From assembly GCF_037042905.1 (NCBI RefSeq), contig NC_087250.1:17424001-17488000 (forward strand): a stretch of DNA of 64,000 nucleotides, read 5' to 3'. The position numbers and the translations under genes are program-made. This document shows, one piece after another, positions 4,121 to 8,159 of the stretch; the first letter of the stretch is position 1, and each line of letters begins with the position of its first letter. Source of the DNA: Lytechinus pictus. Its lineage: Eukaryota. The notes under the pieces are model-generated. The model was given only the letters and a program-made list of their open reading frames with translations, ran no database searches and was not told the origin of the DNA.

Positions 4121-4770
4121 AAAGAGTCTGAAATGTGGTACGTTTTTTGCTCGAAAGGTTCAGGCAAAGTGTGAAACAAATTTATTCACCACTAGAATAT
4201 ACAGCCGTGGAGCTCTTTTTTTAGGCTACAATAATAAAAAAAAAATGAATTATTTCCAGATAAACTCTAACAATTCGCTGGGCAGTTATATCATCTCCAG
4301 ACAGACTTACTGTGCAATTTCATGAAGTATGCACCTCCTATGCCCTAAATGTGGGACTATCCTGCCAAGATCGGTTTTCTAGTTGTCCTTTGTCTCTGTT
4401 CTGTAACGTATATGGAGAGTTGTAAATTTCTCAAATTTTATTAAATTATCATGGCTTGAGATGAGAAGTTCATGAACTTATGTTGCAAAGAAGCAAAATG
4501 AGGGTTAGACATACACAATATTTTTTAATGAATTTCATGGAATTGCTCTACTTTTAAAGATTTGCTGGCTACAGGTGGCTAATCCACATATTAAGATTAC
4601 AGGTAAACCGGAATTCAAAAAAGGGCCATTGTCTTTAAGACCAATAACAGCACCTTCATCTCATGAACACATATTAATTCATTTCAATACCGTATGCAAC
4701 AAACACATGTCAACCTATCTCTCTGGAGACATAATCTGATATAAACCACAAGTAATAAATAAACAAAAAG

Positions 4771-4903
4771 CTATGTCAAACGTTGAACGATGACTGCATT
4801 CATTAGTTTGGCTCCCTCTATTGTTTGGCTATTGTCAGAGAGTGTGTTGTTTGGAAATGTGGTCAGAAGAACGAAGGCTTGCCCACTGTACTGCGGTCTC
4901 GAT
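4771..4903 (-). CDS. NSFL1C: NSFL1C/p47 exon 10 (UBX C-terminus and stop)
   Basis: Reads SRPQYSGQAFVLLTTFPNNTLSDNSQTIEGAKLMNAVIVQRLT*, closely resembling the p47 C-terminus. The summed CDS is 1239 nt, i.e. 412 aa plus stop. Confidence 0.96.
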
Positions 4904-4952
4904 CTGAAAATTAGACTCAAGTTAAGGATATCACAAACATGAATACTCTCAT

Positions 4953-5222
4953 TGATAATAATAATAGCTGGATTTTTAAAGCGCTTTTTGCCTGAGGATA
5001 CAAAGCGCTGCTATTATTACCCGAGCTTTAGCTCGAGCTACCATCACCAGCGCTCAGTGCATGCAAGCAATTACTCCTGCCGGGTACCCATTCACCTCAC
5101 CAGGGTCGAGTGCAGTGTGGATAAATTTCTTGCTGAAGGAAAACACGCCATGGCTAGGATTTGAACCCACGACCCTCTGTTTCAAAGGCGAGAGTCAGAA
5201 CCACTAGACCAGGACGACGCAC
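4953..5222 (-). mobile_element. tRNA-derived SINE (second family)
   Basis: TGGTCTAGTGG A box, GGTTCAAATCC B box, AATGGGTACC core and an (ATT)n tail. Confidence 0.8.
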
Positions 5223-5291
5223 CCACCCATATTAATGTTAGATTGCATATGTTTATAAGAGCACTTGGGAGGGTCCGTATACATGTAATTC

Positions 5292-5565
5292 TGGGCCCCG
5301 TCTTACAAAGATATGATTGATCCGATCAACCTCAGCTATATATGGAAATCCACCATTGTCATAATTTCTACTCCAGGAAATTTGCACCATGTCCTTTTGT
5401 AAATACAGAGAAGCACACTGAATTTCAAGAAAACGAACGTATACATGTACATCATATCTGAAAAATATTACTTTGAACAAACATTACAGTTTAGATGGTG
5501 ATGTTGCTGGCTTTCCATAATTGTGGTTGATAGAATCGATCGCAACTCTTTGTAAGAGGGGGCCC
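5292..5565. mobile_element. Harbinger-like MITE family (copies also at about 14681-14950, 30597-31370 split, and 43206-43477)
   Basis: TIRs GGGCCCCGTCTTACAAAG / CTTTGTAAGA.GGGGCCC flanked by CWG. Confidence 0.7.
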
Positions 5566-6493
5566 AGGGACCTACATTGTGTTACATTTTATCACAATTT
5601 CAGATGTTTGTACATGCTCATTTGACCAACATATTGCTTTGGAAATTAATTTTTTCTTAGATTAATTCCTGGTATAATTTTGATATTTGATAAGTAACTG
5701 ATACAATGCCATATTTTGTTTATAATCATTACCATGATCTGCTTTTGTATTCATGTACGCTGGATTTTCAGTATTCATACTCTTTTTAAAAATAAATAGA
5801 TCCCATACTACTACAACTATTATTCAAGGGAAGTCTACCAAAAATAAACTTGCTTTGAAGATAAAAAAAAATTGACCAAACATTATGAATAAAATTTGAT
5901 AATCAGATGTAAAATAAGAGTGTGGTGACATTTCGAAGCATGGCTGATTCTCACAAATTACATGTAGATGTAGTTGATGGTGAAATTATCTTTGATGTTT
6001 GTCTTCACTAGCGAAGACAAACACAACTTCAAGAATTCCTGTGGATTCGAAGATGGCTAAATAAACCAATCTTCGCCCGGTAAAGACTGTTGCAGTGCGG
6101 GCAAGCAAGAGACGGCAGAGGGGCAGGAAAAATACAAAATGAAATGCAAATTGAAATGCTATGCAAATGACAGAGATGAGAATATCACACTTTCTTTATT
6201 TCTCTTGTATTTTATCAATATGTCAATTTTTGCAGATTTCACAATATGGGTCCAGAATCGTACTACAACAATGACAATACCACATGTTTCGGGTCATATC
6301 AAACTCTGTTTCACATTTAATACAATGAGGAAACAATTTGAATATTCCATATTTCATATAATGAAATACAATATAGAGGGCTCTCTGATGTTCGATTATA
6401 TCCAAATCAGTTTTTCAGGGGGACAGTTTTTCCCTTTATAGCGCATTTTCTAGTATTTTGCTCATATGCATCAACATTTGTCCTGAACATAAA

Positions 6494-6922
6494 TAAGATC
6501 ATTGTCGCTAGAGGGTATTCATTTGTCTCGCAATCTACTATGGTCAACAAGGAAATTCGTGATCACTCTCGCAAAAGTGTTCACTGGCTTTCTAGGAAAT
6601 TCGTGATCACTCTCGCAAAAAGTGTTCACTAGCTTACAAGTTCACGAGCTTTCGAGTGCCGCTGCAACTCTTTATCAAGTGACGTATTCTTTTTCGTCAC
6701 TTGATAAAGAGTTGCAGCGGCACTCGAAAGCTCGTGAACTTGTAAGCTAGTGAACACTTTTTGCGAGAGTGATCACGAATTTCCTAGAAAGCCAGTGAAC
6801 ACTTTTGCGAGAGTGATCACGAATTTCCTTGTTGACCATAGTAGATTGCGAGACAAATGAATACCCTCTAGCGATTATTTCAATCCGCAATAATGAACCT
6901 ATTTAGTATTAAGATCATTGTC
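6494..6922. mobile_element. Penelope-like element remnant: inverted pseudo-LTR pair with a hammerhead motif
   Basis: Perfect 180-bp inverted arms (6505-6684 and 6695-6874), a 10-nt loop, a 35-nt one-sided tail, and a 13-bp direct repeat TAAGATCATTGTC at 6494 and 6910. Confidence 0.7.
6697..6736 (+). ncRNA. Minimal type-I hammerhead ribozyme-like motif (U3-A8 variant); mirrored on the minus strand at 6643-6682
   Basis: TCAC-TTGATAA-A-GAG(T)TGC/agcg/GCACTC-GAAA-GCTC-GTGA gives stem I, core, stem II, GAAA and a palindromic AGCT in place of stem III. Confidence 0.6.
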
Positions 6923-6975
6923 TCTTACATACTTTATTCATAGCATACCAATGCCATATTGTGAACCAAACCTAA

Positions 6976-7258
6976 AGGCCCGGTGCCACTGCACTTACGG
7001 ATGCATAGAGGATGTAAACCAGAAAAGAATCTTGCCGTCCGTAAGGTTCCAAAGCGTCATGTATCCATTGTGTACTCTTTGTATGTGTTTCATATGCTCT
7101 ATATCCATCGAGTATTTGTCCACTGTGATTTCATTGTTCGCCCATTTTGTCCATTGGCTGGAGCGGATGAAAACGGAAAGAGCCACCCCGAAATTTTGCT
7201 TGTCTGCTGTATCCGTTATGAATACGCTTTGTATCTGTCGGCCAGTGGGACCAGGCCT
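6976..7258. mobile_element. PIF/Harbinger-like MITE
   Basis: TIRs AGGCCCGGTGCCACTG / CAGTGGGACCAGGCCT flanked by TAA and TTA. Confidence 0.6.
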
Positions 7259-7293
7259 TTAGCTAGTTATACAATACATATTTAAAAGGATAC

Positions 7294-7353
7294 CCTATGA
7301 TAAAATTCCTGATGTCCTCTATTGTGTGGCTGTGGTTGAATTTTCCTGTCAAC
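7294..7353 (-). CDS. NSFL1C: NSFL1C/p47 exon 9 (UBX)
   Basis: Reads LTGKFNHSHTIEDIRNFIIG; followed by a U12-type donor GTATCCTTTT. Confidence 0.95.
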
Positions 7354-8159
7354 CTGAGGAAGGAAAAACAAAGAAATATTATCAGTTACATAGGGAAATA
7401 AAATAAAGAAATCAACCAATAGGGTAGAGGAAAAGCAGTTTAATTGAAATCTAAAATTAAAGTATTTTATACAAAATCAAGTTAAATTTAAAGGCAAAAA
7501 TAAAAAAATTAAATTCATGACAAATATGGTTCACATAATACAATGATGACTATACTAAAAAAAAATAAGTAACAACACATAAATTGTGGATAGATGATTT
7601 CTAGTTAAATTGACCGGACCAGTTTCTCTGACACATGTTTTGAGTACTAGAACACATCTACTGTCCATTCCCACATTATGGACCATATGGAAGTGTACAG
7701 CATTCTGCTAGAGTCACCAAGGGGGGCAGATCAAATAGTTCTAATTTGGGAATATGTGTTTTCATGCAGTTCATAGCTCTTGGGAGTTTCAGGAACAGTA
7801 GATGTCTGTGATTTACACAGACTAATTTGCTGTTAGCCAATCAGATGGAAGGATTCCCGGTAGCTTGTAACATCTGTCTGTGAAAATCACTGACAAAAAC
7901 TCCATGAAACATTCGCCCAATGGGTGAGTTCAAGTCCGGTGTTGGCCTTGGTGTTGAAATTTGGATTGATTCCCCTAGCTCCAAAATCTATTCTGAGTTT
8001 GTAAAACTGATCCAGATCACATTATTGACATCTCAACAACTAGTGAGTGACTTTTCAGGACCATCTTCATTTTCTGTTTGGCCTTATAATAGTGTAAAAA
8101 TTGACCTAACACCAACACCAAAAGGTCAACACTTAAATTGAAATCACCCAATGTCTTAC

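Follow-up and report, generated by a model that had tools for sequence, protein, structure and literature searches.

What is a perfect palindrome with a hammerhead ribozyme on each strand doing inside a minor-spliceosome intron: is it a mobile unit in its own right, a functional hairpin or the trace of another element? The question is raised by positions 6494–6922 of the window, i.e. the whole stretch of 64,000 nucleotides of the Lytechinus pictus genome that was analysed (contig NC_087250.1, positions 17,424,001–17,488,000). The initial annotation considered this unit a very recent, ORF-less insertion of the Penelope or retrozyme type with a self-silenced ribozyme. [quoted passage not shown]

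The two arms, at 6505–6684 and 6695–6874, are exact reverse complements of 180 bp each, separated by a loop of 10 nt (6685–6694), with a 35-nt tail on one side only (6875–6909, plus strand) and with a 13-bp direct repeat flanking the whole unit (6494–6506 and 6910–6922, both on the plus strand), all as initially described. The length of 13 bp is an upper bound for the TSD because 2 nt at each inner end match the element as well: the last 2 nt of the left copy also fit the inverted arm, and the first 2 nt of the right copy also fit the element. The unit contains a direct pLTR 3' end with a tail (6691–6909, plus strand), which comprises the arm 6695–6874 together with the tail and 4 nt from the loop, and an inverted, tail-less pLTR 3' end (6505–6684, minus strand), which stops 35 nt before the tail end, at the same base as the inverted arms of three other loci (L030, L052 and L056). 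The last 4 nt of the loop are the continuation of the right arm in the element, and the first 6 nt coincide, in the aligned sequences, with element sequence located further upstream in one subfamily; we read this match as a probable 17-nt skip between two 5-nt repeats, and the whole loop (4 nt plus 6 nt) can be built from element sequence. The start codon of the element ORF lies in the tail, at 6893, and the first codons of this ORF, five at most, are the entire coding capacity of the unit. Each arm also contains the internal tandem duplication of about 44 bp that had been noted before (6744–6829 on the plus strand and a mirror copy at 6550–6635 on the minus strand), with the second unit carrying a 1-nt deletion that is the same in both arms; the 44-bp tandem as such is a trait of the family pLTR and is not peculiar to this locus. 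A minimal type I hammerhead is present in each arm, at 6697–6737 on the plus strand (predicted cut after 6733, 160 nt 5' of the ORF start) and at 6642–6682 on the minus strand (predicted cut 6646/6645), the latter being in the sense orientation in the host pre-mRNA.

The origin of the arms can be gleaned from the other copies of the same sequence. A search of the genome with the arm and tail yields 811 candidates, 40 of which were scored, and the full-length matches among these are 99–100% identical; exact copies of the 41-nt hammerhead number 338. Across 30 loci, the family copies share a sharp common 3' end and are variably truncated at the 5' end. Upstream of the arm sequence, dispersed copies run into an ORF with RT and GIY-YIG domains, which bears out the earlier assignment of the arms to a Penelope pLTR in inverted orientation, for which a genome search with an arm had been proposed as the check. 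One locus (L058:1341-5221) contains an intact ORF of 823 aa flanked by direct repeats of 1014 bp with 100% identity, in a 2867-bp unit, with the hammerhead motif located in the pLTR, 197 nt ahead of the ORF start. The arrangement of direct repeats (partial tandems) in L032 and L056 resembles that in L058; the pLTRs of this family are formed by partial tandem copies. The L058 ORF matches RVT_1 over residues 329–509 (32.8 bits, cut-off 29.6) and, in its C-terminal part, GIY-YIG over residues 688–755 at 12.9 bits, which is under the Pfam cut-off of 22.6, the motif being visible in the translation; a PDB sequence search with this ORF gave no relevant match. Inspection by eye of the linker between RT and GIY-YIG reveals a single cysteine and no CxxC ahead of the EN motif. 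Neptune and Nematis are described as having, between RT and EN, an additional Zn-finger-like motif (PMC8557442), and by the criterion of that paper, the lack of such a motif in the linker points to the Penelope/Poseidon clade. The family looks recently active, and each arm almost certainly represents a truncated pLTR, the 3' end of a young PLE that is autonomous. The insertion in the window is indeed very recent, with 0 differences between the arms and a single base separating it from the commonest family form. The description as an ORF-less element of the retrozyme type had to be abandoned in favour of a pair of ends, each 5'-truncated, from an autonomous family, including the first codons of its ORF.

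Pairs of this kind are common in the genome. The first 100 listed of the 338 matches to the hammerhead pattern include 14 head-to-head pairs within 6 kb, as opposed to 0 tail-to-tail pairs, and a pattern closer to the 3' end gives 30 and 0, respectively (first 100 listed of 206 matches). The Penelope habit of leaving inverted pLTR copies, mentioned in the initial annotation, is represented here by dozens of head-to-head pairs. All the short pairs examined (13/13) combine one tailed and one tail-less arm, and the arm ends are distributed bimodally, with 43/64 located within 0–3 nt of the reference end and 21/64 located 27–37 nt short of it, and none in between (64 arms in 39 loci, after the removal of 20 loci that duplicated longer fetches). 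The sample of pairs was drawn from the top hits and the listed matches and is not random. Two hammerheads within 30 nt of each other occur at 4 sites in the genome, with 4 different junctions, and the exact junction of the unit in the window occurs once; a pair with arms of 183 bp (99.5% identity) at L071 also has both hammerhead motifs. The copy in the window is the most symmetric short pair among those examined and is not different in kind from the other pairs of the family; a head-to-head pair with one tail is a routine insertion form of this family.

The palindromes of the family extend to much greater lengths, with arms of 1079 bp at 100% identity in L052:428-3082, a palindrome of 4.9 kb at 99.7% in L035:827-5734 and arms of 1.9 kb at 99.8% in L036:1367-5805. 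Other pairs differ in structural detail. In L061 and L062, one arm has a single 44-bp unit and its partner has two, so that a difference of one unit between paired arms is possible. The arm junction of L061 (L061:1515-1543) consists of several short re-copied pieces of the 5' end of the hammerhead, which suggests repeated template slippage at the join. At L045:364-1289 (G000:C1:4483063-4483988), each arm of an 898-bp palindrome has one and the same truncated pLTR fused to the 3' end of a different, young repeat family that ends in short tandem repeats; a deletion of about 175 bp is identical in both arms.

The hammerhead follows the minimal plan, with a 4-bp helix I, a U3-A8 core, an extra A between positions 9 and 10.1, the G10.1-C11.1 pair, a palindromic, loopless helix III and a predicted helix II of 4 bp, a bulge and 2 bp, so that the motif with the U3-A8 pair reported for both strands can be parsed as such. 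The covariance models did not detect it: a search of Rfam with 6000–7500 matched no hammerhead family and returned 19 rows, all below the gathering scores, the stronger of which are miRNA-precursor models that fit the centre of the palindrome, and a search with 6688–6760 found no hammerhead and one chance match. The family copies are nearly invariant over the motif and provide too little variation to show covariation, so that the assignment rests on the anatomy, the position and the published minimal hammerheads (PMC4209133). When two copies of the hammerhead are cofolded, the lowest-energy fold is not the hammerhead dimer.

A transcript of either strand carries one sense hammerhead, with its complement ahead of it. 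In the minus-strand fold, the bases of the hammerhead pair with the upstream sequence at a mean probability of 0.999, which is what had been expected from the antisense arm being transcribed first, and the hammerhead in the hairpin is predicted to be silent. Self-silencing in the sense of a locked ribozyme is accordingly predicted, and it would be true of any head-to-head pair transcribed in either direction. The term is also too strong, given that a lone minimal hammerhead is reported not to cleave as a monomer and to cleave little as a dimer (PMC4209133); the hammerhead of the PAc element is described as cleaving only with protein (PMC11167929). A special design for self-silencing is rejected.

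How, then, did the two arms arise? The 1-nt deletion shared by both arms has exactly 2 matches in 812 Mb, compared with 206 for the common form, and both arms were likely copied from one template. Other pairs show the same tendency: of 21 one-tailed pairs, 20 have arms that resemble each other more than they resemble the arms of other loci (this comparison set aside two rows in which both arms are tailed, and L042, L057, L059 and L062 failed its length or distance filters). Taken together, the private deletion and the closeness of arms within pairs indicate that one donor or one molecule likely made both arms. Most of the variants shared by the arms of a pair (205/232, in 22 pair rows) are also present at other loci and hence are donor variants. 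The direct repeats at the ends measure 12–15 bp in 19 of the 21 pairs, microhomology included. The further reach into the element belongs to the tailed arm in 10 pairs and to the tail-less arm in another 10, with 1 pair equal; a longer reach by either arm fits two cDNAs primed from the two ends of the target.

These observations are consistent with a single event, in which both arms were likely made from the RNA of one donor. [quoted passage not shown] A Poseidon protein is reported to cut and extend both strands, with two RT start sites bounding the tail (PMC11167929). Under this scheme, the near-perfect symmetry of the unit would stem from both cDNAs halting at almost the same point, and the hammerheads would be passengers of the pLTR.

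Two-ended priming is moderately favoured over fold-back copying, in which the second arm would be a self-primed copy of the first cDNA, or over a later gene conversion between the arms; this alternative is possible, with a clearly lower probability. It would readily accommodate the private deletion found in both arms along with their 0 differences, and the fact that the arms halt within 4 nt of each other. The deletion is missing from every other copy, so that either the assembly lacks the donor or one arm served as the template for its partner. The chimeric junction and the deletion present in both arms of L045 are also easier to explain by arm-to-arm copying, unless the donor itself was chimeric, and self-priming on an antisense template has been read from palindromes at inverted junctions (PMC3846280). 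However, a simple fold-back of the tailed cDNA would need an added deletion in the 10 of 21 pairs in which the tail-less arm reaches further, and the recurrence of most arm-shared variants at other loci marks them as donor variants.

The intron that hosts the insertion belongs to the minus strand. Five exons of the host gene join in one open frame that includes a SEP domain (E 8e-11, above the Pfam cut-off) and a UBX domain (19.9 bits, below the cut-off of 21); the gene is presumably NSFL1C/p47, other SEP-UBX genes being possible. The last intron (4904–7293, 2390 nt, GT-AG), located between an exon in the middle of the UBX region (7294–7353) and the last coding exon (4769–4903, placed by the joined frame and the domain match), has the signals of the U12 type, in line with the initial annotation. 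Its donor, (A/G)UAUCCUUU at 7293–7285, is the only such 9-mer in the window, its branch site, TCCTTAAC at 4921–4928, lies 17 nt from the AG, and removal of the intron leaves an open frame; the U12 consensus is given as the donor (A/G)UAUCCUUU and the branch site UCCUUAAC located 10–20 nt from the acceptor (PMC8199999). The gene name NSFL1C is absent from the text of PMC10639083 and from the supplementary files of PMC6717393 that were examined, the full gene list being perhaps elsewhere. The insertion leaves all splice signals intact, at a distance of 371 nt to the donor, 1590 nt to the acceptor and more than 1.5 kb to the branch site. Since the genome contains dozens of such pairs, finding one within a minor intron calls for no particular explanation, and the placement is likely due to chance. 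The same intron contains a separate 291-bp stretch (6972–7262) between the Penelope insertion, 50 bp away, and the U12 donor, 31 nt away, with 20-bp inverted repeats (90% complementary) at its ends, that looks like a small non-autonomous DNA transposon.

The hairpin is predicted to form in the host pre-mRNA, where it could undergo dicing or editing in the manner of other inverted Penelope copies. Since head-to-head pairs make up a large share of the insertions of this active family, they would seed host introns with perfect pLTR/ribozyme hairpins; that the hairpin in the window is, in addition, a standing source of Dicer-made siRNA against its own family or shifts the splicing of the U12 intron, a slowly spliced one in a housekeeping gene, appears unlikely. 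It is quite improbable that the hairpin has been retained for a function, be it in modulating the U12 splicing of this gene or as a host-driven source of RNA that silences the family. The predicted stability of the hairpin in the pre-mRNA is in line with such a role, as are the roughly twofold slower splicing reported for minor introns (PMC8199999) and the siRNA produced from inverted Penelope copies in transgenic Drosophila (PMC3681739). These points are outweighed by the extreme youth of the insertion, which has identical arms one base away from the commonest form, by the presence of the same form at dozens of loci and by the distance of the unit from the donor and the branch site. No function that would tie the element to the U12 intron is indicated.

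Perfect palindromes may be artefactual, in this case a fold-back chimera of the assembly, and the homopolymer indel in both arms may be a consensus error. This explanation is very improbable and is rejected, considering that the flanks are unique, non-mirrored and carry a target duplication, that the inverted arm halts at the second end site of the family, at the same base as in three other loci, and that the arm differences in other pairs have grown with age. A non-autonomous element of the retrozyme type, moving as a palindromic unit, would account for the two hammerheads and the coding capacity of at most five codons, but is scarcely credible and is rejected because each strand carries one sense hammerhead, the exact junction is found once and the 4 tight hammerhead pairs have 4 junctions, the sequence upstream in other copies is an RT-EN ORF, and the definition of retrozymes calls for units in tandem, with two or more hammerheads following one another on the same strand (10.64898/2026.07.22.740005), whereas the copies here are inverted.

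On its own, the locus in the window carries little weight, being one among many such insertions. The family, in contrast, is suitable material for the question of whether the inverted repeats and tails of Penelope come from two-ended priming or from self-priming: young, nearly identical copies are available in the hundreds, along with an intact ORF and dozens of inverted pairs with arm-shared variants. If the single-template reading is true, the private changes shared by two arms would be an in vivo record of a single template molecule, and if small RNAs map to the hairpins, the Drosophila finding on siRNA from inverted Penelope copies would be extended to a natural, active family. Across titles and the opening parts of abstracts, with subscription papers outside this scope, there was no report to the point, either for twin priming in Penelope or for a minor intron carrying a Penelope hammerhead.

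Most of the components of the unit have precedents in known systems. Inverted truncated copies, a one-sided tail, a minimal hammerhead, the U3-A8 pair, hammerhead pairs on opposite strands and siRNA from inverted copies are already published, and TSDs of 8–10 bp, head-to-head junctions and a one-sided tail of 30–40 bp are described in PMC8557442 and PMC3846280. The minimal hammerheads of metazoan PLEs (PMC4209133) share with the one in the window the short helix I, the extra nucleotide between 9 and 10.1, the G10.1-C11.1 pair and the palindromic 15.2-16.2 segment, and the U3-A8 variant has about 1,300 hits in Schistosoma in that paper. The helix II of 7–8 bp given there for Schistosoma is longer than that in the predicted fold here, and the opposite-strand hammerhead pairs are about 100–700 bp apart, compared with 14 nt here. 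The animal (non-LTR) retrozymes (10.64898/2026.07.22.740005) resemble the unit in having a type I hammerhead of pLTR origin and no protein; unlike them, it has no tandem units and no two hammerheads on the same strand, and is not dispersed as a unit.

The inverted Penelope copies of Drosophila (PMC3681739) form, like the unit here, an inverted repeat capable of yielding dsRNA when transcribed; unlike those siRNA sources, the hairpin in the window is intronic and would be driven by the host gene. The closest parallels are the EN+ PLEs of the Penelope/Poseidon clade (PMC8557442; Pen2a_Av, PMC3846280; PAc, PMC11167929), in which RT and, C-terminally, GIY-YIG are encoded in a single ORF, as in the parent family here, and which share the partial tandems, the inverted 5'-truncated copy, the short TSD, the head-to-head orientation and the tail of 30–40 bp at one end that enters the start of the ORF. 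The hammerhead cut of PAc falls 26 nt after the ORF start, whereas here it is predicted 160 nt before it. The unit in the window differs from the insertions of these EN+ PLEs in that both copies measure about 180–220 bp, and the outcome is an almost fully symmetric hairpin.
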